DNA of 59,919 nt, filler included, from Malassezia furfur (GCA_052055015.1; 7 parts of 7 records of this genome joined end to end with filler, not necessarily neighbours in it), one strand, 5' to 3'. Positions 8,659-51,558 are shown, counted from the whole stretch's first letter. Notes: generated by a model from the letters alone, not told the origin. A program made the numbers and translations.

Positions 8659-8758
8659 NNNNNNNNNNNNNNNNNNNNNNNNNNNNNNNNNNNNNNNNNN
8701 NNTTAATTAATTAANNNNNNNNNNNNNNNNNNNNNNNNNNNNNNNNNNNNNNNNNNNN
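8659..8758. other. Artificial contig linker N44-TTAATTAATTAA-N44 (also 17333-17432, 26003-26102, 34497-34596, 42982-43081, 51459-51558)
   Basis: Six identical 100-nt spacers with stops in all frames. Flanking segments measure 8658, 8574, 8570, 8394, 8385, 8377 and 8361 nt, i.e. sorted by size. Confidence 0.97.
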
Positions 8759-17332: not shown

Positions 17333-17432
17333 NNNNNNNNNNNNNNNNNNNNNNNNNNNNNNNNNNNNNNNNNNNNTTAATTAATTAANNNNNNNNNNNN
17401 NNNNNNNNNNNNNNNNNNNNNNNNNNNNNNNN

Positions 17433-20193: not shown

Positions 20194-21215
20194 ATGACGA
20201 GCTTGCTCCCGGTGCTGCGCCAGGCGCACAACGACAATCCGTGGGACGACGCAACACTGCATGCGCTACGCGTTGACGGTACCCAAATTGGGTTCATCCC
20301 GCCGAACGTGATGGAGGTGGTCAAGGCGTATCTCGCGGATCGCCCACACACCCACCTGCGTATCCAGGATGGCGCACTGACCTTCGCACCCGAGGCAATC
20401 GCCGCGCAGCGCACCGATGAGATGAACCAGATGGCCGTGTGGATGCGCGACACGAAAAAGTTTCCGGATCCGCTGGATGGTAGGCACCCCTGGCTCACAA
20501 CAGGCTGGCGCGACGAACAGTACGCCGTGTATGGCCCAGGCGACGGTGAAAATCCGAGCACCGTTGTCTTCACACTGGAGCGGTCTGCATGTGCCTTATT
20601 CGGCATCGCAACGTTCGGCGTGCACCTCACCGTACGTCCCATGCCCTCACTCAGGCATACACGCCCGACGGCCGTATTTGGGTCCCGCGCCGCTCCCGAA
20701 CCAAGCAGACATGGCCAGGCTACCTGGACAACTCAGTCGCTGGCGGAATCACGGCGGGCGACTCGCCGCGTGCCTCTATGGTGCGCGAGTGCTTCGAGGA
20801 GGCCGGCTTGTCGCGCGACCAAGTCGAGCCATACCTCAAGGTACGCCACGCGCAGCCACTGACACGCTGCAGCAAACGGGCCACATCACCTACTTCTACA
20901 AAACGTCGCTCGGATGGCGGCAGCCTGAGATGCAGTACACGTACGACTTGGCCCTGCCCTCGGACGCGATCCAACTTCGCCCCGAGGACGGCGAGGCCGA
21001 GTCGTTCGAGCTGCTCGACGTACCCAATGTGCTGCAGCGCATGCACAAAGGCGAGTTCAAAGCGAACTGCTGTTTGGGTAGGTGGTACTGCGCACTGACA
21101 TGCAGTCCTGGCCGACTTTTTCATCCGGCATGGGTACCTCACTGCAGAGAACGATGTGCATTACGCAGAGATCGTCACAATGCTGCACACCAACCTGCGC
21201 CTTCCCACGCCATAG
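20194..21215 (+). CDS. Nudix hydrolase, YJR142W/Tnr3-like
   Basis: [73 protein letters not shown] after splicing 20480-20503, 20632-20654, 20841-20872 and 21078-21105. Confidence 0.88.
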
Positions 21216-21367
21216 TTTGCACACACAAGGGTCAATTGTTTCACTGTAATCCAGCATTTTTTGGGTGACTTGTACAGGGCGCTGCACAATCAACTGCATC
21301 CATCTAATGAGACGGCATTCGCGCCGCAATACGACATGACGAAAGTACAGCAAGAGCAGCCAAAAGC

Positions 21368-21591
21368 TTAGATGTTAAGCTTGGTGCGGCGCCAGTGACG
21401 GCGGTTCTTGTTGTACTGGATCTTCTTGTCGGTCTTCATGCGGAACCAGTTGGGGATGGGGCTAACGGTCAGTCGGGACGCGCGCAACATACCGGTTCTG
21501 GCGCTGAGCCTTCGCCAGCTTAAGCTTCGTGCGGAGAGACTTGTTGGAGGGCTGCAGTGTAAGCACAGTGCCGCGAAGGCATACACACCAT
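21368..21591 (-). CDS. RPL39: 60S ribosomal protein L39 (eL39)
   Basis: ATG-only first exon; introns 21552-21588 and 21462-21492 give [51 protein letters not shown]. Confidence 0.96.
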
Positions 21592-21827
21592 GTTGACGGT
21601 ACTCCAAGTGTGTAGGGAGAAGCGGTGGCGCCCGCCGGTGGTATCGCTTCTTCCATTAGCACGTGACAAACTAATACGTCACGTGAACAGAACCTCACAT
21701 TTCTCCGCGCGAAGCGCGAATTCCCTCCACATTGCGTGCAGGTGACCTGGCCTGTGCGCTCCGCGGAACGTGGAGCAAGTAACATCGCACCGGCTCACCG
21801 GCACATTCTTTCATCCGTACTGCCACG

Positions 21828-22709
21828 ATGACCGAACCGTACAAACACAAAGCCGTTCCTGCTCTTGATGTATTCAAGCCAGACCTGTTCAAGGATAAGG
21901 TAGTGTTTGTGACGGGCGGCGGCTCGGGTATTTGCTACGGCGTAACTGAGACGCTGATGCGCTTCGGCGCCAAGGCGGCCATTGTTGGGCGCAAGGCCGA
22001 GCGCCTGCGCGCCGCAGCCGAGCAGCTTGAGCGCGACACCAAGTCCAAAGCGATTGCGACGCCTGGCGATGTGCGCAAGATTGAGACGATCCAGCACGCA
22101 GTCAAGCAGACGCTTGACGCCTTTGGCAAGATCGACTTTGTGATATGCGGCGCGGCTGGCAACTTTATGGCGCCCATCGAGGGCCTCTCCTCGAACGCCT
22201 TCCGAACAGTGGTCGAGATCGACCTGCTCGGTACGTTCAACACGGTACGCGCAACGATGGAGGAGGTGAAGAAGAGCCACGGATCTTACATTCATATCTC
22301 GGCGACGCTGCACTACTCGGGCTTGCCTTGGCAGGCAGCCGCGTCATCAGCCAAGGCCGGCGTCGACGCGTTATCCGCCGCGCTAGCTGTGGAGCTGGGT
22401 CCGTTTGGTGTACGCAGCAACTGTATTGCGCCGGGCCTCATTGCTGGCACCGAAGGTGCCGACCGTCTCGTGCCGCAAGGCCAAGAAGAAATGGTGCAAG
22501 GGTTCATGCCCATGCAGCGGATTGGCCAGAAAGACGACATTGCCAATGCGGCCGTGTTCCTCTTCAGTGAGGCGGCCAGCTGGATTACGGGCCAGATTCT
22601 CGTGGTCGATGGAGGCTCAGTGCATTTCCGAGGCCCCTTCCTGCCCTATCCCGATGCAGTGATGGACACCCAATCATTCAAGAGTTTGTTCCCTGGATTT
22701 AAGATGTAA
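21828..22709 (+). CDS. SPS19: Peroxisomal 2,4-dienoyl-CoA reductase (SDR)
   Basis: TGGGSGI, GAAGNF, NAFRTVVEIDLLGTFN, ISATLHY, AKAGVDAL, VELGPFGVRSNCIAPG. Confidence 0.92.
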   Translation: MTEPYKHKAVPALDVFKPDLFKDKVVFVTGGGSGICYGVTETLMRFGAKAAIVGRKAERLRAAAEQLERDTKSKAIATPGDVRKIETIQHAVKQTLDAFGKIDFVICGAAGNFMAPIEGLSSNAFRTVVEIDLLGTFNTVRATMEEVKKSHGSYIHISATLHYSGLPWQAAASSAKAGVDALSAALAVELGPFGVRSNCIAPGLIAGTEGADRLVPQGQEEMVQGFMPMQRIGQKDDIANAAVFLFSEAASWITGQILVVDGGSVHFRGPFLPYPDAVMDTQSFKSLFPGFKM

Positions 22710-24792
22710 CTAGGTCGTGGAAAGATAGGCACCCAATTTCCCCAGCAGTTCATTCTTTTTTCCACTCGTCGGCAGGCCGTAATGCGCACAGGCGGCGCGC
22801 AGGTCGGCGACCAGAAGACGGCCGAGGATACCCTCCTTGTGCATCTCGCGCAACTCTTTTTCTCGGGCGGGGTCAAACGGCTGTGTCTTGGGCTCAGACT
22901 TGCGTACGGTCTGGACGGGTGCCGGTGCAGTGCGCTCGTCTGCCTCCATGGCCTCATTCCAAGTCTGGATCTGAGTGCCAGCGCGCTGCGGTGAATGCGT
23001 TAACGTACCTCATCAATCAGCGTATAGTCGGGAAGAATAGTATCTTGGTAAGAAGGAACGGGCGATCCAAATGCGAGTGCCATGAGCATGCTGTAGTGAT
23101 GGTGTAATGCAGGGTTCGTAAAAGCATCTGGGTTCAACGGCGCCTTGCGCAGGAAGCTGTCGATAATCCGACCGGCGGCCTCGACCTCCTCGGCATTTGC
23201 TAAGTTAAGTTGGGAACATACCACTCTCTGTCTTGACCTGAGGTGCGTCCCGGATGTCGTCCGCATACGGCAGGACGATCATGTTCATACCGGGCGGCAC
23301 GAGTTGGTTCCCCTCCTCGTCAACCTCCTCAGCTTGCGGAAGGATGGCAACAAAGGCGGGAATAACGTTTTCGCGCGGCATGTACAGCCCCAGAGCATAT
23401 TTGTTCTTCGACAGCATTGACTGGAGCAGGGCGGCAAAAACACGCTTGCTCCCTGGCTGGTCCAAGTCGGATGGATACAAAAAGTAAGCATGCTTGATAT
23501 TTTCGAGAAAGTGCAGTGTTGAACGGTCCTTGAATCCAAGCAGCTTGACCCCGGGAATACACCCAAATGTACGCAGTTTCTTGACCTCGTCGTCGGACAA
23601 CACCACTTGTGCCTGGTCGGTTGGCCCTTCGCTGATGGGATACGCATTGACAATGTCGGTCGGCTGTACACGCTCGCCCGTCTGGGCATCATAAAAGTGC
23701 TGATAGGCCATAACCTCGTGTAGATCATCGGGATTCTCCTGCCCGTAGGATGACACGCGCACGGGCATGTCTTTGGTCGCCTCAGAGATGAGGACGTACC
23801 CTTTAACATGGATCCGCCAATGCGACGCGCGTTGCGCCTTAGCGTGCTTGTCTTCGTTCTGTTTCGAGAGTGGACCTAAATCCATCATCAGGTCAAAGAT
23901 GACACGCTTGGGCATTTCGCGGCCGCCCATCTGCTCGTCGAGTTCTTGGAATTTTAACGTCGAATCCCATGCGCGGCGCTTTGAGCCATTCTGGTCCTGC
24001 ATTTGTCGCAGACGCCACGGCCGGAGAGCATCATCCACAAGCCCATCGTCATAAGCACCGACGATCTCTGCGTAAAACACATTCACACGGAAGGTGTGCC
24101 GCTGTGATGACATGAAGAACGGCTCCATATCCACGCCACGGCGGTACATATCCTTCATGCGATCAATGCACGCCTTTTGTGCAAGCTGTTTCTCCTTTCC
24201 TGGTTGTGGGTCGTCCTGGTTGGTAATGTAAAAGATTCGGCGTGAGCCGGCTTTGGCCCTGCATCAGTGACGCCGACATACGCAGAGCTGAGCAGGTGGA
24301 GCGCATTGGAGAAGACATGCTCGACGGGGATCTGTGTTGAGGCCGGAGCAAAGCGCGTCGTAAGCGTACTGGGATCCTTTTCCGCGGCTGGGTAAGTGTG
24401 ACACGTACCTGCCACGATCTGTTGCAGCTCGTAAGTGTTGGGAACGTTGACCTGTTGCGCCTTGATGTACTCGACTGTGTGCGGCTTGAAACCCGAGCGG
24501 GTTTCCGTCACCATGCGCGACTCCATCTTGGATAAGCAGGATACGTACCGTGTTCCACAGGAGGACACCGACGTGATCCTTAGGAGAGCTCACCAATTTC
24601 ATCTCCATCAGACGCACGGCCGCACGGAGCGCGACCAGCAAAGGCGCCTCTGCCTCGCCCGATGTATCGTGCATCGTTGCGCCACAGTCAATGGCAAATA
24701 GGACTACATCGCGGTGCGCATAATTCTGGATCAGTCGTACCACGCACCTCCCAAGGCACTGCATGCGCCTCGTCCCCCGCCCCGGCCTCCAT
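22710..24792 (-). CDS. KU70: Ku70 DNA end-binding protein
   Basis: VVLFAIDC (vWA), RRIFYITNQDDP, LLGFKD, LPYADDIR, NPALHHHY, C-terminal SAP domain. Six introns: 24726-24747, 24527-24548, 24388-24408, 24259-24281, 23200-23221, 22986-23008 (21-23 nt). Confidence 0.93.
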
Positions 24793-24883
24793 GTCGCGTG
24801 GAGGTCCCTGCGGTGGAGGATCGACGCGCCACGCGACAATTCCGGCGCGTCGCACGTCGCGCTCCACCGACCGTTCGTGCACG

Positions 24884-25811
24884 ATGGAATTCCCGCCGCA
24901 GCACGAGGCATCTGCTGTGTACGCGCAGCCGGGTGTGGTTGAACACAATGAGGCGGTGCATGAGACAGAGCCTACGCAGCCTTCTCTACCTTCCGCACCC
25001 ACAGAGGTCAACCCTGAAATCTCCGCAACGCACGCAACCGTCGCCGCGCCTCTAGAGCCAGGCGAGGAGGCAGAGCCTGCGAGCGAAGAGACAGCGGGTG
25101 CACCAGCTGCTAATGTACCGCAGGCACCTAAGCGTGCACCGCGTCCGAGCTTGCCGCCACAAAAAGGAACTACGGTATTCCCTTTGGCACGCATTGCCAA
25201 GATTGTCAAAGTAGGTCCGCGAGCGCTGACCACAGGCCGACAGTGCCGTGGACATTTGCAGCAAAGAGGCAACCTTTCTGATCAGTGCTGCAACAGTATG
25301 TGTTGAGAGTAACACAGGAATTGTTCGTCAAAAAGTTTGTCGAAGAAGGCTGTATTAATGCGCGCATGGATAAGCGCAAGATGGTCCGCTACGATGACAT
25401 GGGTACGTGTTTTCTTTCGCTAACGCAGCCAAAGCCGCACAGCAAAATGAGTACCTTGACTTCCTGCGGGACGTTGTGCCGATGCCCATGCCGCTGTCGG
25501 CGGCCATGCAGCAACGCGCACAAATGGCCCAGGCAGGAGAGGAACAAGAGGCGGTCGACGCAAGCCCTACTGAGTCCAGCAAGCCTGTCGACGAACACGA
25601 GGCGGAGAGCGATGCAGATATGGATGCTGAAGATGTGCCGTCGCCGTCGCCCCTGCCACCAACCTCTGCCAAGGCGGAGGGGTCGCATGAATGGTCGCCG
25701 ACACCGTCTGCCGCGGTAGCCTCCAGCACTAACCTTACGCCGTCGGAATCGGGCGGCACACCCGTGTTGCCAACGCCTCAAGAAGAAACCACAACGCCTA
25801 TGGATCTGTAG
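24884..25811 (+). CDS. Histone-fold (NF-YC-like) protein, Dpb3/POLE4-like
   Basis: Spliced FPLARIAKIVKADSAVDICSKEATFLISAATELFVKKF..RKMVRYDDMAKAAQQNEYLDFL. Introns 25211-25235, 25296-25317, 25403-25428. Confidence 0.85.
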
Positions 25812-25979: not shown

Positions 25980-26223
25980 AATAACTTGATCGTGTGCGCT
26001 TANNNNNNNNNNNNNNNNNNNNNNNNNNNNNNNNNNNNNNNNNNNNTTAATTAATTAANNNNNNNNNNNNNNNNNNNNNNNNNNNNNNNNNNNNNNNNNN
26101 NNCCCGAGGCGCCCGAGGCGCCTGCGGCACCTGCGGCGCCTGACGCGCCCGAGGCGCCGGCCGCGCCGGCCGCGGACGACACACTCGAGTCCGACATGGA
26201 AAACATTGCACTGTAGGGTATAG

Positions 26224-34496: not shown

Positions 34497-34596
34497 NNNN
34501 NNNNNNNNNNNNNNNNNNNNNNNNNNNNNNNNNNNNNNNNTTAATTAATTAANNNNNNNNNNNNNNNNNNNNNNNNNNNNNNNNNNNNNNNNNNNN

Positions 34597-42981: not shown

Positions 42982-43081
42982 NNNNNNNNNNNNNNNNNNN
43001 NNNNNNNNNNNNNNNNNNNNNNNNNTTAATTAATTAANNNNNNNNNNNNNNNNNNNNNNNNNNNNNNNNNNNNNNNNNNNN

Positions 43082-44075
43082 GGTGGAAGCAGCACAGGCA
43101 CCCGAGCCGCGCCACCACGTCGCGCACCGCAAACTCCTCCATACAAATAATGCACTCGTTCCCAATCAGCACCGAGTCGGGCGCCAGCTGCGACACCACG
43201 TAGCGCGTGCGCGGCACCACATCGGCGGGCGCGCCGTGCTCGAGGCAGTGCATCACATGCGCCTCGCGCGCCTCCTCGGTCGGCAGCGTGCGCAGCGGCC
43301 GGTAGCACACGGGGCACTCGTCGAGCAGGCTTGATGCCAGCGATGCCTCGCCGTCGCCGTCGCGTGCCGCGTCCGCGGGGCGTGGGCGCTGCATGTAGGA
43401 TATCATGTGCGTCAGCAGCGACGTGTCGTGCGCGCCGTCGCGCGGCTCGGGCGCCAAATGATACGTCTCGACACACCAGTCGCACACACGCGATGGGCCC
43501 ACACGCTCCACGTCAAGCATCTCGGGCATCGTCGGGTCAATGATCAGGTCGTCGACACGCAGGTGTGCACGGTGTGTCGTACACGCGTCGCAAAAGATGC
43601 GGCCACACCGCCGGCAGTGGTGCTTGCGCACAAAAAAGGTAAAGGTACGCCCACACTTGCGGCATGCACGCACGTCATGGTCGTCCTCCCACCGCCCGAC
43701 ACTGCGCGCAACGTGCCGCGCCGTGCCGGATGCGCCAGAGGAGCCGCTCGACAAGTCGCTCGCGTACGCATCCGGCGGCGGCGTGCTCCAGCTGTGTACA
43801 CTTGTGTCGTCCTCCGCGGCGTCATCGGCAAGGAACGAGAGCGCCGATACGATTCGTGCACGCAGCGTCGACTCGGACGGCGTGTGCGCCGCACTCGTCG
43901 CGACGTCGTCTGCCGGCGCCGGCGCATGCCGCGCCATCTCGTCCGCAGAACCGGTCCCGGGCGAACCCGTCCCGGGCGACGCGTGCCGATGGGCATCCTC
44001 GTTATCTTCACGCTGAGTATCGCCGCGATCGCCGGTACTCGTCGCATCGCGCGCCGAGCCACCTACCTCGGACAT
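43082..44075 (-). CDS. PIB1: FYVE + RING E3 ligase Pib1-like, copy A, 3' truncated
   Basis: WEDD..C..C..RKHHCRRCGRIFC..RVC; ECIICMEEF..ARLGCLCCFH. Confidence 0.88.
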
Positions 44076-44283
44076 GACGCGGCGGGGTATACGACAGGTA
44101 CCTGACGGCGCTAACGAACCTCCACATAGCCGCCGCAGCCTCGCTGTCCTTTGTGCCTATTCACCGCTGCCCGTATCTCGCTTAGCGCAAAGCATTTTGG
44201 GTGGATCCGCAGCACAATGCGCTGTGCTCCATGTATACAAATCTACGTGTCGCAGACAGGATGAACATCACAGGCATGCATGC

Positions 44284-44936
44284 TTATGCGGACGCAGCAC
44301 GCGCCTCACGCACAGCCTTCTCCGTACCGTGCTTGGCGTAGCGCTGGTTGCGCAGGAACTTGGGGTCCACCTGGAAAGTTAGTAGCCATTCACAACATGA
44401 GGCAGAATAGGAAACGGCGAGTGTGACGACGTGCGAACGGGAGGGTGGGCAAGGGGACAGGGCGGGATGCACGAGCGAGGACAGCAGCCGCGCCAGGGCT
44501 CCGAGAGCAAGGCAGACATAAACATGAGCGTGATCAAGGTGGGACACGAAATCGATATCCGAAGCACCCATCTGGCGCACCGCATGAGCTGCCTTGCACC
44601 CCGTACCGACGTCCGCGCTGTCAGCACAACGTCCCTCGTCGTACATCCGCACAGAGCGCAGACCCACGACGCGCACGCACGATGCACGCATGGTCTTTGC
44701 AGTGTACACATCCTGCCATTCCTGGTCCTGTCCACATCGCCTCCGTCATCGTTCCGTCACATTTCACCTGTTCCTAACCCGCCGCGCTCATACGTACACC
44801 GCGCAGGCTGGGGTAACGGTTCGTCTTGGGCTTCTTGATACCGTTGCGGTGAGCCTTGCTCGACTGGTTGTGGTTGGTGTGGTTCTTAGACTTCGCCCTG
44901 CACGGTCAGCACATCCACTCCTACGCCCACGTACAT
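44284..44936 (-). CDS. RPL29: 60S ribosomal protein L29 (eL29), copy A
   Basis: [50 protein letters not shown]. Introns 44898-44934 (splits AT|G) and 44371-44797 (427 nt). Confidence 0.95.
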
Positions 44937-45061
44937 TGTAAGTCGTTGGGAAAGAAACTGGTACGGCGCCGGAAGAAAACGCATGGGAATTTGCCGCAGT
45001 AGTTCCTCACGTGATATGCCACGCGACAGAGGTACGCCGCGCGACGCGCTCCCTCCACCTG

Positions 45062-45794
45062 ATGGCCATGGAGCGTGGGCCGCACGCCGCGCACGCTCCA
45101 GGCGAATGCGCGCGCCTGGAGCGCATGCGGACGGCGCTGGACAAGTTTTTGACGCTGATTGATGACAAGGCCAAGTACGTGCCGCGCTGACGCAGCGCAA
45201 AGAATTTTGCCGTGGCCTTGCCCAACGTCGACGAGGTCGCGCTAGAAAAGACGCGTCTGCAATTCGTGCAGGACCTCAAATCCGAGATTCGCGTACGTGA
45301 AATGTCTTACGCAGAACGATCTGGATGAGTTGGTGGTGAAGCACGACCTTGGTGCGCGGCTCTCGGAGCTCCAGGAGCTGGTGGACGAGGCCGACGAGCG
45401 CGAACGCAACGCGTACGCACCACATTCCGCCGAGCTCAAGGATGTTTGGCGGCCCGATTTGGATATTTCCACAGCGATCCGCGCACGCATCACTGCGGAT
45501 CAGCAGGCGCGCATGCCTGCGTTGGAGCACGAGTTGGCCGAGGTACGTCGCCCTTTGCTTACGCGTCAGCTGCAGGCCGCCAATGCCGAGTCCGCCGAGC
45601 GCATCACAGCAACCGAACAAGAGGCAGACGAGATGCAGGCGCACGTCGCCGATGCTCTGGCGATGCTCGACAAGGTACGTCGCCCATCGCAAGTCCTGAC
45701 GCAGCTCCGGGGCGCCGTGACGCTGCCCAGCGAAGATGCCAAGGCGCTACAAGCGATGCTCGATGCACTCTTGACCGATTTGGGACCTGTATAA
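45062..45794 (+). CDS. NNF1: Kinetochore MIND subunit Nnf1-like, copy A
   Basis: KNFAVALP, DLGARLSELQELVDEA, WRPDLDISTAIRAR. Introns 45175-45195, 45293-45314, 45543-45569, 45675-45704. Confidence 0.72.
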
Positions 45795-45927
45795 TGTGTA
45801 CTATAGTGGGACGTTACCAACCGAGACGACACCTGCGTGCGCGTGCCGCGTGCGGGGCGGACCGTGTGCGGGGCGGACCGTGTGCGGGGCCGCAGCCCCT
45901 CCACACCCAGGGGCCTCCACGGCGAGC

Positions 45928-46827
45928 ATGTCGCTCGAGCTCGACTGGAGCCTGGTGACGCAGGCGCTGGCCGACCGGCTACGCGACCGCATCAATAGGC
46001 TGTTGAGCACGATCGAGATGCCAAGCTACATGGGCCCTTTGCATCTACACACGCTCGAGTTTGGCGCCGAGGCGCCCGAGCTACAGATCGAGCATGTCGG
46101 GGACGTCTGGCGCGAATTCCGCGAGGCGACCGTGTCCGCGCAGCACAAGGAGCCGTATACAACGACACCGCCGCTCAGTGCATCTGTGGCCGGCATGCAG
46201 GCGCCGCTCGGCCCAATGCGCATGCGCACCTTCCGGCAGTACGACTCGGAGCTGCCCGTGTCGGTGAGCGCGGACGAGGAGCTGAGTGAGCTGGACGACG
46301 ACGAGTCGATGCTGCGCTGGAGCGAGTCGGGTTCCGAGGCCGGCTTCACAGACAGCGGCACGTTTGCAAGCGACATGCCGAGCGCGTCGTCGACCGGCGG
46401 CCTACCGTCGCTCCAAGTGCACGTGCGGGCGCAATGGCTCAGCGGCTCGGTGCGCGCGGGCCTCACCACCACGCTGGAGATCCACCAAGGCGACACGACG
46501 ATCATGAGCTTGCCCGTGAGCGTGCTGCTCACGAGCCTCGAGGTGGTCGGCCAGGTGGTGATCGCACTTGACGGCGAGCAGCGGTGCGTGTATGTGACGC
46601 TGTGTGAGGACGAGCGTGCGCGCGAGGCGAGCGGGGGCCGTGCGCGGCACAAGGCGGCGCGCATCGTGCCGTTCCTCGGGTTCGACAGCCGCATCGGCGA
46701 GCCGACGCGCCACGTCCTCGAGAACGTCGGCAAGGTCGAGCGCTTCGTGGGCGATATTGTGCGCCAGCTGCTCGAGGGCGAGCTCGTGTTCCCCAATTTT
46801 TACACACTGGCCCTGCCAGAGGCCTAA
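45928..46827 (+). CDS. MDM12: ERMES subunit Mdm12, copy A
   Basis: MSLELDW start, FGAEAPELQI, SRIGEPTRHVLENVGKVERF..ELVFPNFYT. Confidence 0.9.
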   Translation: MSLELDWSLVTQALADRLRDRINRLLSTIEMPSYMGPLHLHTLEFGAEAPELQIEHVGDVWREFREATVSAQHKEPYTTTPPLSASVAGMQAPLGPMRMRTFRQYDSELPVSVSADEELSELDDDESMLRWSESGSEAGFTDSGTFASDMPSASSTGGLPSLQVHVRAQWLSGSVRAGLTTTLEIHQGDTTIMSLPVSVLLTSLEVVGQVVIALDGEQRCVYVTLCEDERAREASGGRARHKAARIVPFLGFDSRIGEPTRHVLENVGKVERFVGDIVRQLLEGELVFPNFYTLALPEA

Positions 46828-46836
46828 GGAGACTGT

Positions 46837-47305
46837 CTACCGCGTCCGCGGCGTCCGCGAAAAGAGGCTGCGGCGCTGCGCGTCGCCCTGCGACTGCATG
46901 TATTCGCCGACAGCCCGCACATCGTCGCCGTTGGCGCGCTGCAAATAAGTGCGCGCCGTGCCCTCGTCGAGGTCCGGCAGCGCGTCCATGACGCGCTTGA
47001 GGCTCGCCTCGAACACGGGGTTCGGTTTCGGCGGCGGCGGCAGGTTGAGCGAGCCCGCGAGCAGCGCCGGCGCTGCCGCGCGGGTCTCTTCGCTCATGCG
47101 CGCGCCGAGCCCCGGAATACCCAGCCCAAAGCGCGGCTCGCTCGCCGCCTCCGACTGGCGCGACACGGTGCGCGTCATGCCGCCGCCGTCGCGCGTCGCC
47201 ACCGACGCGGGTGTGCCGAGGTCGTAGTGCGACGCGCGGTGCTGCACCGTGCGCCCCACCAGGGCCGGCGCGGCGCTCGGCGCGGCGCTGCCCGGCGTCG
47301 CGGTC
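46837..47305 (-). pseudogene. 3' fragment of a gene ending in a CUE/UBA-like domain, copy A, 5' lost at the fold
   Basis: FEASLKRVMDALPDLDEGTARTYLQRANGDDVRAVGEYM. The reading frame runs into the inversion centre with no shared start codon. Confidence 0.55.
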
Positions 47306-47735
47306 GCCGGCGCTTGTAGGGCGCACGCTGCAGCACCGCATGTCGCACTACGACCTCGGCACACCCGCTTCGGGGGTGCACGATGGTGGCGGCGGCTTGG
47401 CGCGCACCGTGTCGCGCCAGTCAGAGGCGCCGAGCGAGCCGCGCTTTGGGCTGGGCATCCCGGGGCTGGGCGTGCGCATGAGCGAAGAGACCCGCGCCGC
47501 AGCGCCGGCGCTGCTTGCGGGCTCGCTCAATCTGGCGCCGCCCAAACCAAACCCGGCATTTGAGGCGAGCCTCAAGCGCGTCATGGACGCGCTGCCGGAC
47601 GTCGACGAGGGCACCGCGCGCAGCTACCTGCAGCGCGCCAACGGCGACGACGTAAGGGCCGTCGGCGAGTACATGCAGTCGCAGGGCGACGCACAGCGCC
47701 GCAGCTTCTTTTCGCGCACACCGCGTACACGGTAG
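47306..47735 (+). pseudogene. 3' fragment of the same CUE/UBA-like gene, copy B
   Basis: PALVGRTLQHR..FEASLKRVMDALPDVDEGTARSYLQRANGDD. Its ATG at 47340 is GCG in copy A. Confidence 0.55.
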
Positions 47736-47744
47736 ACAGCCTCC

Positions 47745-48644
47745 CTAGGACTCTGGCAGGGCCAGCGTGTAAAAATTGGGGAACACGAGCTCGGCCTCGA
47801 GCAGCTGGCGCACAAGGTCGCCGGCAAATCGCTCCACCTTGCCGACGTTCTCGAGGACGTGGCGCGTCGGCTCGCCGATGCGGCTATCGAACCCAAGGAA
47901 CGGCACGATGCGCACCGCCTTGTGCCGTGCACGGCCCCCGCTCGCCTCGCGCGCGCGCTCGTCTTCACACAACGTCACATACACACAGCGGTGCTCGCCG
48001 TCCAGCGCAATCACTGCCTGCCCCACCACCTCGAGGCTTGTCAATTGTATACTCACGGGCAGGCTCATGATCGCCGTATCGCCCTGGTGGATCTGCAGCG
48101 TGGTGGTGAGGCCCGCGCGCACCGAGCCGCTGAGCCACTGCACCCGCACGTGCACTTGGAGCGACGGCAGGCCGCTGCCCGAGGTCGTGCTTGGCATGTC
48201 GCTCGCCATCGTGCCGCTGTCCGTAAATCCGGCCTCGGAACCTGACTCGCTCCACCGCAGCATCGACTCTTCGTCGTCCAACTCGCTCAGCTCCTCGTCC
48301 GCGTTCACCGACACGGGCAGCTCCGAGTCGTACTGCCGAAAGGTGCGCATGCGCATCGGGCCAAGCGGCGCCTGCATGCCGGCCACAGAGGGAGTCGGGG
48401 GCGAGGCCGTCGTATACGGCTCGTTGCGCTGCGCCGACGCGGTCGCCTCGCGAAATTCGCGCCAGACGTCTCCGATATGCTCGACCTGCAGCTCGGGCGC
48501 CTCTGTGCCGAACTCGAGCGCGTGCAGGTGCAAAGGGCCCATATAGCTTGGCAGTTCTACCACGCTCAGTAGCTCATTGATACGGTCGCGCAGCCGGTCA
48601 GCCAGCGCCTGGGTCACCAGGCTCCAGTCAAGCTCGAGCGACAT
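47745..48644 (-). CDS. MDM12: ERMES subunit Mdm12, copy B
   Basis: Intact 900-nt ORF, same length and motifs as copy A. Confidence 0.9.
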   Translation of the reverse strand: MSLELDWSLVTQALADRLRDRINELLSVVELPSYMGPLHLHALEFGTEAPELQVEHIGDVWREFREATASAQRNEPYTTASPPTPSVAGMQAPLGPMRMRTFRQYDSELPVSVNADEELSELDDEESMLRWSESGSEAGFTDSGTMASDMPSTTSGSGLPSLQVHVRVQWLSGSVRAGLTTTLQIHQGDTAIMSLPVSIQLTSLEVVGQAVIALDGEHRCVYVTLCEDERAREASGGRARHKAVRIVPFLGFDSRIGEPTRHVLENVGKVERFAGDLVRQLLEAELVFPNFYTLALPES

Positions 48645-48777
48645 GCTCGCCGTGGAGGCCCCTCGGTGTGGAGGCAATGGCCCCGCACGCGGTCCGCCTC
48701 GCACGCGGTCCGCTCCGCACGCGGCGTGTGCGCGCGCATGCGTCGTCTGGCCTGGCATCGCCTCTCTATTGTACACA

Positions 48778-49510
48778 TTATACAGGTCCCATATCGGTCA
48801 AAAGTGCATCGAGCATCGCTTGTAACGCTTTGGCGTCTTCGCTGGGGAGCGACACGGCGCCGCGGAGCTGGATCAGATCCCGCGCGCGTCGACGTACCTT
48901 GTCGAGCATTGCCAGTGCATCGGCGACATGCGCCTGTACCTCGTCCGCCTCTTGCTCTATTGCCGCGATGCGTTCCGCAGACTCGGCATTTGCGGCTTGT
49001 AGCTGATGCGTGAGCGAAATACACCGTACCTCGGCCAACTCGTGCTCCAGCGCAGGCATGCGTGCTTGCTGGTCTGCCGCAATGCGCGCACGGATTGCGG
49101 TGGAAATGTCCAAGTCCGGGCGCCAAACATCCTTGAGCTCGGCGGACTGCGGCGCGTACGCATTCCGCTCACGCTCGTCCGCCTCGTCTACAAGCTCCTG
49201 CAGCTCGGAAAGCCGCGCGCCCAGATCATGCTTAGCCACCAATTCGTTCAAATCGTCCTGCGTGAGGCCATGCACGTACGCGAATTGCGGACTTGAGGTC
49301 CTGCACGAACTGCAGACGCGTCTTTTCCAGCGCGACCTCGTCGACGTTGGGCAAGGCGACGGCGAAATTTTTCGCGCTGCGTCAGCGTGGCACCTACTTG
49401 GCTTTGTCGTCAATGAGTGTCAGAAACTTGTCCAGCGCCGTCCGCATGCGCTCCAGGCGCGCGCACTCGCCTGGAGCGTGCGCGGCGTGCGGCCCACGCT
49501 CCATGGCCAT
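48778..49510 (-). CDS. NNF1: Nnf1-like, copy B
   Basis: Same four introns at the same positions as copy A. Confidence 0.72.
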
Positions 49511-49636
49511 CAGGTGGAGGAGCGCGTCGCGCGCGGCGCATGGAGATCGCGTGGCGCGTCACGTGAGGAACTACTGCGGCAAATTCCCATGCGTTTTCTT
49601 CCGGCGCCGTGCCAGTTTCTCTCCCAACGACTTACA

Positions 49637-50268
49637 ATGTACGTGGGCGAAGGAGTGGGCGTGCTGACCGTGCAGGGCGAAGTCTAAGAACCACACCAAC
49701 CACAACCAGTCGAGGAAGGCTCACCGCAACGGTATCAAGAAGCCCAAGACGAACCGTTACCCCAGCCTGCGCGGTGTACGTATGAGCGCGGTGGGGTAGG
49801 AGCAGGTGGACGTGACGATGCAGTGACGACGGAGGGCAACAGGGCGACAGGAAGTCAGGGTGTGGACGATGGGGAGGCCTTGCGGATGCCACATGTGTAC
49901 ACCACGCATCGGTGCGCTTCGGCGGACGGTGCAGAGCATGCACAAGTTCGCGCGAGGGTCAAGGCCGATAGTGGCTATTTCTCCTATGTGACGAAGGGGA
50001 TGCCCAATGTGCTATTACCGAGCTGCCGCTTTGGTCGTGCGTGTGCTGGGTGTTTTCGCTCTTGGATCTTTTGCGCAGGCTGCACCTTGTCCCATCCTTT
50101 CTGCATCCGCCCTATGCCGCACAGTGTCGCTGTTCCTTGCTTCTACGCCACCCTTTTTGTGAACGGCTACTAACCCTACAGGTGGACCCCAAGTTCCTGC
50201 GCAACCAGCGCTACGCTAAGCACGGTACTGAGAAGGCTGTGCGTGAGGCGCGTGCCGCGTCCGCATAA
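49637..50268 (+). CDS. RPL29: 60S ribosomal protein L29, copy B
   Basis: Introns 49639-49675 and 49776-50181 (406 nt, TACTAAC branch point). Confidence 0.95.
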
Positions 50269-50476
50269 ACATGCTTACCTGTGACGCTCATCCTGTCTGC
50301 GACACGTAGATTTGTATACATGGAGCACAGCGCGATGTGCTGCGGATCCACCCAAAAAACGGTTTGCGCTATACGAGGGAGAAGCGGCGGTGAATAGGTC
50401 TGCAGGGCGAAGGCTGCGGTGCCCATGTGGAGGTTCGTTGGCGCCGTCAGGGGTCGGCCGTTTCCCCCGCCGCGTC

Positions 50477-51458
50477 ATGTCCGAGGAGGGTGGCCCGGCG
50501 CGCGATGCCTCGAGGGGCGTCGATTGCGGCGCTGTGCCGCATGCGGACGACGGGCGTGGTCGTCAGCCTGCGTCGTTCGACGCCGAGCCTGTCGACGAGG
50601 TGGCACGGTATGCGTCGGCGCCGGCCGACGGCGTCGTGGCGAGTGCGGCGCACACGCCGTCCGAGTCGACGCTGCGTGCACGCATCGTATCGGCGCTTTC
50701 GTTTCTTACCGATGATTTTGCGGACGACGGTGCGAGTGTGCGCAGCTGGAGCACGCCGTCGCCCGACGCATACGCAAGCGACGTGTCGAGCAATACCTCT
50801 GGCGCGTCTGGCGCGGCGCGGCACGTCGCGCGCAGTGTCGGGCGGTGGGAGGATGACCATGACGTCCGTGCGTGCCGCAAGTGTGGGCGTACCTTTACCT
50901 TTTTCGTGCGCAAGCATCACTGCCGGCGGTGTGGCTGTATCTTTTGCGACGCGTGTACGACGCACCGTGCGCACCTGCGCGTGGACGACCTGATCATCGA
51001 CCCGACGATGCCCGAGATGCTCGAGGTGGAGCGCGTCGGCCCATCGCGCGTGTGTGACTGGTGTGTCGAGACCTATGGATTGGCGCTTGCGCCTCGCGAC
51101 GCGGCGCACGACACGTCGCTGCTGACGCACATGATGTCCTACGTGCAGCGCCCGCGGACCACAGACGGAGCGCAGGGCGGCGACGCCGAGGCGGCGTCGC
51201 TGGCGTCGAGCCTCTTGGACGAGTGCCCCGTATGCTACCGACCTTTGCGCACGCTGCCGACCGAGGAGGCGCGCGAAGCGCATGTGATGCACTGCCTCGA
51301 GCACGGCGCGCCCGCGGATGTGGTGCCGCGCACACGCTACGTTGTGTCGCAGCTGGCGCCCGACTCGGTGCTGATTGGGAGCGAGTGCATTATTTGTATG
51401 GAAGAGTTTGCGGTGCGCGACGTGGTGGCGCGGCTCGGGTGCCTGTGCTGCTTCCACC
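50477..51458 (+). CDS. PIB1: Pib1-like FYVE-RING, copy B, 3' truncated
   Basis: Same motifs as copy A and ends at the same base. Confidence 0.88.
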
Positions 51459-51558
51459 NNNNNNNNNNNNNNNNNNNNNNNNNNNNNNNNNNNNNNNNNN
51501 NNTTAATTAATTAANNNNNNNNNNNNNNNNNNNNNNNNNNNNNNNNNNNNNNNNNNNN

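Follow-up and report, generated by a model that had tools for sequence, protein, structure and literature searches.

Hybrids are well documented in Malassezia furfur. Four of the six M. furfur assemblies in the published genome work are double-sized, and text passages of the mBio 2022 study (PMC9040865) describe the hybrid lineages H1 and H2, take CBS 9595 and CBS 14141 as the references of the P1 and P2 lineages, respectively, and give an overall P1–P2 similarity of 89% (~10% divergence), with hybrids that are mostly diploid and show ~20% loss of heterozygosity. As these passages present them, the two hybrid subgenomes carry intact, ~89%-similar copies of each locus, one CBS 9595-like and the other CBS 14141-like, on separate chromosomes. 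In the contig described here, which lies in a 59,919-nucleotide (nt) stretch of M. furfur DNA (GCA_052055015.1; the whole stretch is hereafter called the window), two such copies of a five-gene block (PIB1-like, RPL29, NNF1, MDM12, and a long gene designated X) stand head to head instead. The arms of this fold-back contig (positions 43082–51458, counted from the first nt of the window) are a textbook instance of the published hybrid subgenomes, and it is the join between them, located inside the coding region of X, whose origin is considered below.

The junction belongs to known kinds, being either an in-vivo fold-back or microhomology template switch, or an in-vitro chimera formed at a short reverse complement. 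Fold-back inversions and palindromic duplications that start from short inverted repeats are known in yeast, fission yeast, and human, as is template switching during break-induced replication. Junctions of this in-vivo kind have the same head-to-head join as the present contig, an inverted repeat that provides a few bases of microhomology, and a short loop of unique sequence; the classic fold-backs, however, copy the same molecule or the sister chromatid, with arms identical at their origin, whereas the arms of the present contig are not from one molecule, being of P2 and P1 types from the first informative bases. Artefact chimeric fragments, in the text passages of PMC8458033, carry a short reverse-complementary region at the break, and their partner segments come from opposite strands at distances of tens to 200 bp. 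The chimeras of library end repair treated there by SimFFPE/FilterFFPE share with our contig the short reverse-complementary break and the inverted-repeat product, but arise from one molecule or close neighbors, whereas two homeologous chromosomes are involved here. The join thus differs from both known kinds by linking two homeologues, and the asymmetric anatomy of its turn is new in this analysis. No description of a head-to-head join of homeologues was found in the text passages of PMC13405305 and PMC9040865.

Two homeologous arms in one contig

The window is composed of seven separate contigs (8658 down to 8361 nt), set apart by spacers of 100 nt consisting of N with TTAATTAATTAA at the center. 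The sixth contig is tiled end to end by inverted-repeat arms. In a global alignment of its left part with the reverse complement of its right part, the arms were 87.4% identical over 4090 ungapped columns (3576 matches and 514 mismatches, in addition to 197 gap columns), a value that fits the published P1–P2 similarity (89%; text passages of PMC9040865). The identity varies along the arms, from 94–98% in the RPL29 exons and at the contig ends to 53–60%, with many gaps, at 44368–44720. All five genes are found in each arm, as expected from the original prediction, made from the sequence alone, of a fold-back with a mirrored five-gene block; the same prediction had described the middle of the RPL29 intron as unalignable, and the region of lowest identity indeed lies inside that intron. 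None of the other six contigs has a fold-back, the largest short-range inverted repeat in them being 30 nt at 70% identity, and no 31-mer is common to different contigs among the seven of the window.

Protein matches assign the two arms to different lineages. MDM12 of the left arm is identical over 297/297 residues to P0023 (recorded in NCBI, UniRef, and elsewhere, and encoded on 100 contigs of up to 3.09 Mb) and matches CBS9595_000781 at 263/297 residues. MDM12 of the right arm matches CBS9595_000781 (P0026) at 296/297, P0028 at 297/297, and P0023 at 262/297 residues. Likewise, the C-terminal part of X encoded by the left arm is identical (157/157) to GLX27_001257 (P0060), P0061, P0062, and P0064 and agrees with CBS9595_000780 (P0039) at 140/157 residues, and that encoded by the right arm is identical (142/142) to CBS9595_000780 and agrees with the full-length P2-type proteins at 125–126/143 residues. 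CBS14141_001077 falls in the protein cluster of the left-arm X type. In CBS 9595, the locus tags of X (CBS9595_000780) and MDM12 (CBS9595_000781) are consecutive on one 3.08-Mb scaffold, an adjacency read from the tags.

Comparison of the arms by the Nei–Gojobori method gave synonymous divergence (dS) and dN/dS (omega) values of 0.38 and 0.17 for MDM12, 0.36 and 0.18 for the 3′ end of X, 0.36 and 0.28 for the PIB1-like gene, and 0.92 and 0.065 for NNF1 (162 codons). The compared frames contain no stops, and X is shortened by the join, not by mutation. The count originally reported for an NNF1 exon is exact: 45570–45674 and 48898–49002 differ at 17 of 105 nt, with three amino-acid changes. Judged from these coding sequences, the divergence of the arms is the ordinary orthologue divergence between two lineages under purifying selection. 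Altogether, the comparison shows that a single chromosome-1 locus of a P1 × P2 hybrid M. furfur is present in the contig as two homeologous copies, P2-type on the left and P1-type on the right, placed head to head. The view of the arms as homeologues in a hybrid, put forward in the original prediction, is upheld by the protein matches, each arm being nearest to a different lineage rather than both to a single parent.

A metagenome scan for parental or related DNA with MDM12 gave 66 pattern matches, none of which was confirmed, and an exact 24-nt pattern common to both arms gave no match in the metagenome scan.

Anatomy of the turn

The turn is located off the center of symmetry, at 47305–47312, with the P2 copy reaching 14 codons (42 nt) beyond the P1 copy. 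On the minus strand, the left copy follows the native P2 X back to ...PATATPGSAAPSAAPALVGRTV... (nt 47310), before which the contig encodes ...CALQA vs native ...(M/A)VRPP. The right copy, read on the plus strand, agrees with native P1 X only from PALVGRTL... (nt 47307) onwards; ahead of this point the contig has ...CPASRS, vs ...AAPSAA in native P1. At the protein level, the native P2 and P1 readings overlap in CCGG (47307–47310), inside the palindrome CGCCGGCG. Native P2 requires a Pro codon at base 47313 and native P1 an Ala codon at base 47304, neither of which the contig base allows; the length of the microhomology is therefore 4 to 8 nt, hinging on two parental third-codon bases. Since the 8-mer CGCCGGCG occurs four times in the 8377-nt contig, a join exactly on one of its copies is not expected by chance. 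Its 7/8 partner on the left arm, GGCCGGCG, lies at a site that is a perfect palindrome in the P1 copy.

Differences between the left arm and the mirrored right arm are located at 47247, 47257, 47260, and 47263. On the other side of the join, 47313 is the earliest base incompatible with native P2, and P1-specific bases occur at 47315 and 47318. P1-specific sequence begins 1–3 nt past the join; the original prediction had set aside a fresh palindrome or a self-priming artefact on the grounds that the arms would then be identical, and this reasoning holds and can now be given to the base. The GC content is 72–81% around the break and 81% in 47200–47299. The segment 47240–47335 folds into a hairpin of −45.3 kcal/mol (z = −4.0), which follows from the fold-back itself and constitutes no independent evidence.

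Read at the protein level, the join is a junction of the template-switch type. From the palindrome CGCCGGCG at 47305–47312, the P2 strand passes to the opposite strand of the P1 copy, at the site homologous to 47263–47270, with a 34-nt loop left between. Such an anatomy is that of a 3′ end which came to a halt in one palindrome copy, paired with the other on a same-sense strand, and was then extended backwards.

Contig ends and runs shared by the arms

It is general behavior of de Bruijn assemblers that contigs end at branching nodes. Among the seven contigs, only the one at 43082–51458 has ends that are reverse-complementary to each other; as originally noted, they are exact reverse complements over exactly 55 nt, and nt 56 is the first to differ. 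As with contig ends at branching nodes, both ends stop after 55 shared bases, where the homeologues become identical. The longest identical stretch between the homeologues is, however, internal, namely a 76-nt run that spans an RPL29 exon end and the splice donor, and other 55-mers common to both arms lie within this run only. Because it contains this internal shared run, the contig is not a plain unitig of k = 55 but a path on which a small repeat was resolved. The proposal that both ends enter one k = 55 node therefore stands as far as the exactly 55 shared nt are concerned, but does not extend to the contig as a bare unitig, since the 76-nt run was threaded. Further identical runs of 50–54 nt, just under k = 55, occur at 44859, 44963, 45052, and 46687. 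Two published M. furfur assembly pipelines are without k = 55 (SOAPdenovo with k of 41–81, and CLC). The contig ends are uninformative as to whether the join is real or chimeric; the path stops at the shared 55-mer either way.

Origin of the join

We give a slight and tentative preference to the view that the join is a chimera from library preparation or assembly and not a native chromosome structure. In this event, a chimeric molecule or path would have arisen at a GC-rich, hairpin-prone spot, and the assembler would have followed it outwards along both homeologues until these merged in the shared 55-mer of the conserved RING-finger region; full-length X would be present on both homeologues in the cell. 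The preference is due to base rates and to the biological cost of the structure. The sole evidence for the join is one contig of a fragmented short-read assembly, with ends on a graph branch, and the break falls inside a conserved coding gene of ~1450 amino acids (aa) in both copies. Its anatomy is chimera-like, with an 8-nt palindrome, a 42-nt offset, and 81% GC. Full-length or long P2-type X proteins with an identical C-terminus (157/157; P0060, P0061, P0062, and P0064) are found in other assemblies, which are not necessarily of this strain. A simple real fusion would, in addition, give a dicentric or acentric product, as set out below for the isochromosome.

Several points weigh against a chimera and favor a join truly present in the DNA. 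Most known fold-back artefacts form within one molecule and would have both arms of one haplotype, whereas heterology is immediate here, the sequence being P2-specific to 47263 and non-P2 from 47313. The span between bases of the two parents is 51–53 nt (51 nt for 47263–47313), so that five 55-mers or six 56-mers carry bases of both parents; a k = 55 assembler presumably must have met such mixed-parent words in the reads. Random intermolecular pairing on an 8-mer present four times in the contig has no reason to choose the homeologous site. Moreover, an assembler that threads a 76-nt run would normally favor the well-covered native continuation over a rare chimeric edge; the contig is unbroken through the join, which suggests that the native P2 continuation is weak or absent.

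An origin in silico without chimeric reads was considered and rejected: the native P1 sequence upstream of the join is unable to supply the junction k-mers, and same-haplotype fold-back reads (P1–P1 or P2–P2), which hairpin self-priming usually yields, would leave two to four mismatches in each turn-spanning 55-mer.

A serious contender, which we regard as quite possible, is a real, clonal rearrangement in the hybrid by an inverted template switch between homeologues. A P2 strand, broken or stalled so as to end in the palindrome inside X, would have primed synthesis on the P1 homeologue's same-sense strand, available for instance as the strand displaced in a D-loop of homeologous repair or in break-induced replication, and the P1 locus would have been copied backwards. 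Viability would need a second switch beyond the contig (inverted duplication or triplication) or an extra chromosome copy. The P1 homeologue would retain an intact X; distal to X, the P2 sequence would be lost or converted, with loss of heterozygosity. Hybrids with ~20% loss of heterozygosity, some of them aneuploid and with deviating karyotypes, are on record in the text passages of PMC9040865 and PMC13405305. The change of homeologue within 1–3 nt of the join also argues for such a switch, as the two chromosomes must have taken part in a single reaction, a situation most readily met in the nucleus, and the contig runs unbroken through the join, as if the left arm had no other continuation. 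The combination of microhomology and loop fits fold-back and template-switch junctions; such junctions are nevertheless rare in wild-type yeasts. Also unfavorable are the truncation of X on the rearranged chromosome and, given the position of the centromere CEN1, the unseen further structure that would be needed to avoid a dicentric or acentric product. No junction-spanning protein was found in the protein collection, which is weak evidence against a real junction. A search with the 229-aa frame across the turn against proteins of 125–401 aa gave one match, unrelated to the junction (P0043, 55% over 27%), and exact look-up of six turn frames found none of them (0/6), a result that is weak either way, two of the frames having a GTG start entered as V and being unable to match.

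An isochromosome-like structure, formed by inverted fusion of the homeologous chromosome arms, had been proposed in the original prediction and would account for head-to-head arms from two homeologues, but in its simple form, with no structure beyond the fusion, we consider it very unlikely. The break is in a coding gene (X, with 72–81% GC) and not at a centromere; CEN1 of CBS 14141 is located elsewhere, at 2,850,135–2,850,402 (2.85 Mb) of chromosome 1, a segment of 268 bp with 15.7% GC (PMC7025860, Table 2). The contig has no GC trough, the lowest values (~0.59–0.61) being those of the RPL29 intron. The tags 000780/000781 (3.08-Mb scaffold) and 001077 (3.09-Mb scaffold) suggest an interior locus. 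The product would be dicentric or acentric, with both copies of X truncated.

That the sample is a mixture or co-assembly of P1 and P2 strains, with the join as a chimera between strains, is likewise highly improbable. Only one locus with both types is seen, and the window has no feature that would separate a hybrid cell from a mixture; against this, hybrids are well documented, as outlined above, and an inter-type join would be even harder to form. An old inverted duplication within one genome, the copies of which diverged in place under selection, was also among the original proposals and agrees with diverged arms that are both under purifying selection, but it is barely credible and was rejected, because the proteins of each arm match those of a different haploid lineage at 99.7–100% identity and those of the other at ~88%, haploid CBS 9595 has a full-length X (1454 aa) with a locus tag next to that of MDM12 and P2 strains have a full-length X of 1447–1479 aa, and the divergence equals the genome-wide P1–P2 value.

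Gene X

Gene X is 1447–1479 aa in full length in haploid strains, and each arm of the contig keeps only its last 142–157 codons, the join cutting X at codon ~1300 of 1447–1479 in both copies. The 149 residues adjoining the turn gave 17 matches among 1.84 billion representative proteins; the three best, of 569–1485 aa, were aligned through the C-terminal 147–148 residues only. The named relatives are CBS9595_000780 (1454 aa), CBS14141_001077 (1447 aa), and GLX27_001257 (1479 aa), and the orthologues of M. brasiliensis and M. psittaci are named 'CUE domain-containing protein' in UniRef. In the Pfam search, the window pieces of X gave only sub-threshold UBA_4 scores (19 and 20.4 bits; cut-off, 21.8), and no Pfam domain was found in three long relatives (two full-length proteins of 1454 and 1485 aa and one of 569 aa). 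X is a long protein, rich in Pro, Ser, and Ala, and is predicted to end in a small CUE/UBA-like domain.

Native X proteins (P0039 and P0064) have tandem repeats of a ~13-residue unit (...GGTPSLPSSTPYV...) in the middle and are mostly rich in Pro, Ser, and Ala. One database protein, P0065 (113 aa, from an ENA contig of 4369 nt), corresponds to window 46840–47178 on the minus strand, and is a P2-type X C-terminus of the same allele. It was called from an internal ATG, and other assemblies give X proteins of 863–1479 aa; a contig end and the same disruption are both conceivable. The 4369-nt ENA contig showed no convincing fit to fold-back or native contigs bounded by the shared runs.

Genes of the arms and other features of the window

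The features of the contig and the window are collected in Table 1. The PIB1-like frames exit the contig within the RING-finger region. In the left copy of RPL29, an exon ends at 44798, the intron extends over ~44371–44797, and the second exon includes 44323–44367; the intron has a GTACGT donor from 44797, and a CTAAC branch point and a CAG acceptor before 44370. The 3′ end of gene X stands tail to tail with MDM12. The protein search with MDM12 gave 22 of 8000 scored candidates at E ≤ 0.001, and the named matches, all but one from Malassezia, are annotated as MDM12 or SMP-LTD proteins.

In several assemblies (P0002, P0028, and P0029), P1-type MDM12 is called 38 residues longer upstream (337 vs 299 aa). 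The 337-aa frame is also open in the window (47745–48797, minus strand), and these calls are probably over-long at the start. The P1-type arm is nearer to M. brasiliensis (P0027 and P0057) than to the P2-type arm (275/297 vs 262/297 in MDM12, and 132/142 vs 125–126/143 in X), and the 90% cluster of P1-type MDM12 includes the M. brasiliensis protein.

The spacers between the contigs account for many 100-nt 'inverted repeats' in the window-wide repeat search. The third contig has a 4.5-kb stretch of lower GC at 21033–25532 (0.52–0.62 in 300-nt windows), following 0.63–0.78 in the first part of the contig; this stretch is without a sharp AT-rich trough of the centromere type.

Table 1. Positions of the features in the fold-back contig and of the spacers, in window coordinates
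Feature	Position	Strand	Remarks
Fold-back contig (contig 6)	43082–51458		8377 nt; two diverged arms; from inverted-repeat search and alignment
Left arm, P2-lineage (CBS 14141-type) copy	43082–47312		native P2 protein up to 47310, possibly 47312
Right arm, P1-lineage (CBS 9595-type) copy, inverted	47305–51458		native P1 protein from 47307, possibly 47305
Terminal 55 nt, left	43082–43136		exact reverse complement of 51404–51458; conserved RING-finger part of PIB1-like gene
Terminal 55 nt, right	51404–51458		mirror of 43082–43136
PIB1-like FYVE frame, left	43083–44156	−	Pfam FYVE, 68.5–70 bits; runs off contig end
PIB1-like FYVE frame, right	50384–51457	+	Pfam FYVE, 64.5–66.2 bits; runs off contig end
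RPL29 (eL29), left	44323–44896	−	Pfam Ribosomal_L29e, 71.1 bits
RPL29, right (mirror)	49680–50229	+	Pfam Ribosomal_L29e, 72.9 bits
76-nt run identical in both arms	44782–44857 (mirror, 49716–49791)		longer than k = 55; RPL29 exon/intron border
NNF1 frame, left	45246–45794	+	Pfam Nnf1, 25.1 bits (cut-off, 23.7)
NNF1 frame, right	48778–49419	−	Pfam Nnf1, 26.2 bits (cut-off, 23.7)
MDM12, left	45928–46827	+	299 codons and stop; SMP-LTD protein
MDM12, right	47745–48644	−	protein matches
Gene X 3′ end, left	46837–47310	−	last 157 codons and stop; Pfam UBA_4, 19 bits, below cut-off
Gene X 3′ end, right	47307–47735	+	last 142 codons and stop of 1454-aa protein; Pfam UBA_4, 20.4 bits, below cut-off
Partner of palindrome on left arm, GGCCGGCG	47263–47270		7/8 match; homologous to right-arm start
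Loop	47271–47304		34 nt; minus strand encodes native X residues (part of PATATPGSAAPSAAP)
Join, 8-nt palindrome CGCCGGCG	47305–47312		native readings overlap at 47307–47310
Spacers	8659–8758, 17333–17432, 26003–26102, 34497–34596, 42982–43081, 51459–51558		

Implications

If the join is a chimera, it is a warning that fold-back artefacts in hybrid or highly heterozygous genomes appear as long palindromic contigs with diverged arms. Such a contig may pass for an isochromosome or an ancient inverted duplication, and it conceals the rest of a 1450-aa gene. Either way, MDM12 and the 3′ end of X provide markers diagnostic for P1 and P2, being ~100% identical to one lineage and ~88% to the other.

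Among the M. furfur hybrids are reference and neotype strains, and loss of heterozygosity as well as aneuploidy is known in these hybrids. If the join is real, the contig would give a base-pair view of a homeologous chromosome rearrangement in these hybrids and would indicate the 8-nt GC palindrome pair as a fragile site. The join would then be the trace, left in a natural P1 × P2 hybrid of a yeast of human skin, of a template switch mediated by microhomology between homeologous chromosomes, possibly at a boundary of loss of heterozygosity.

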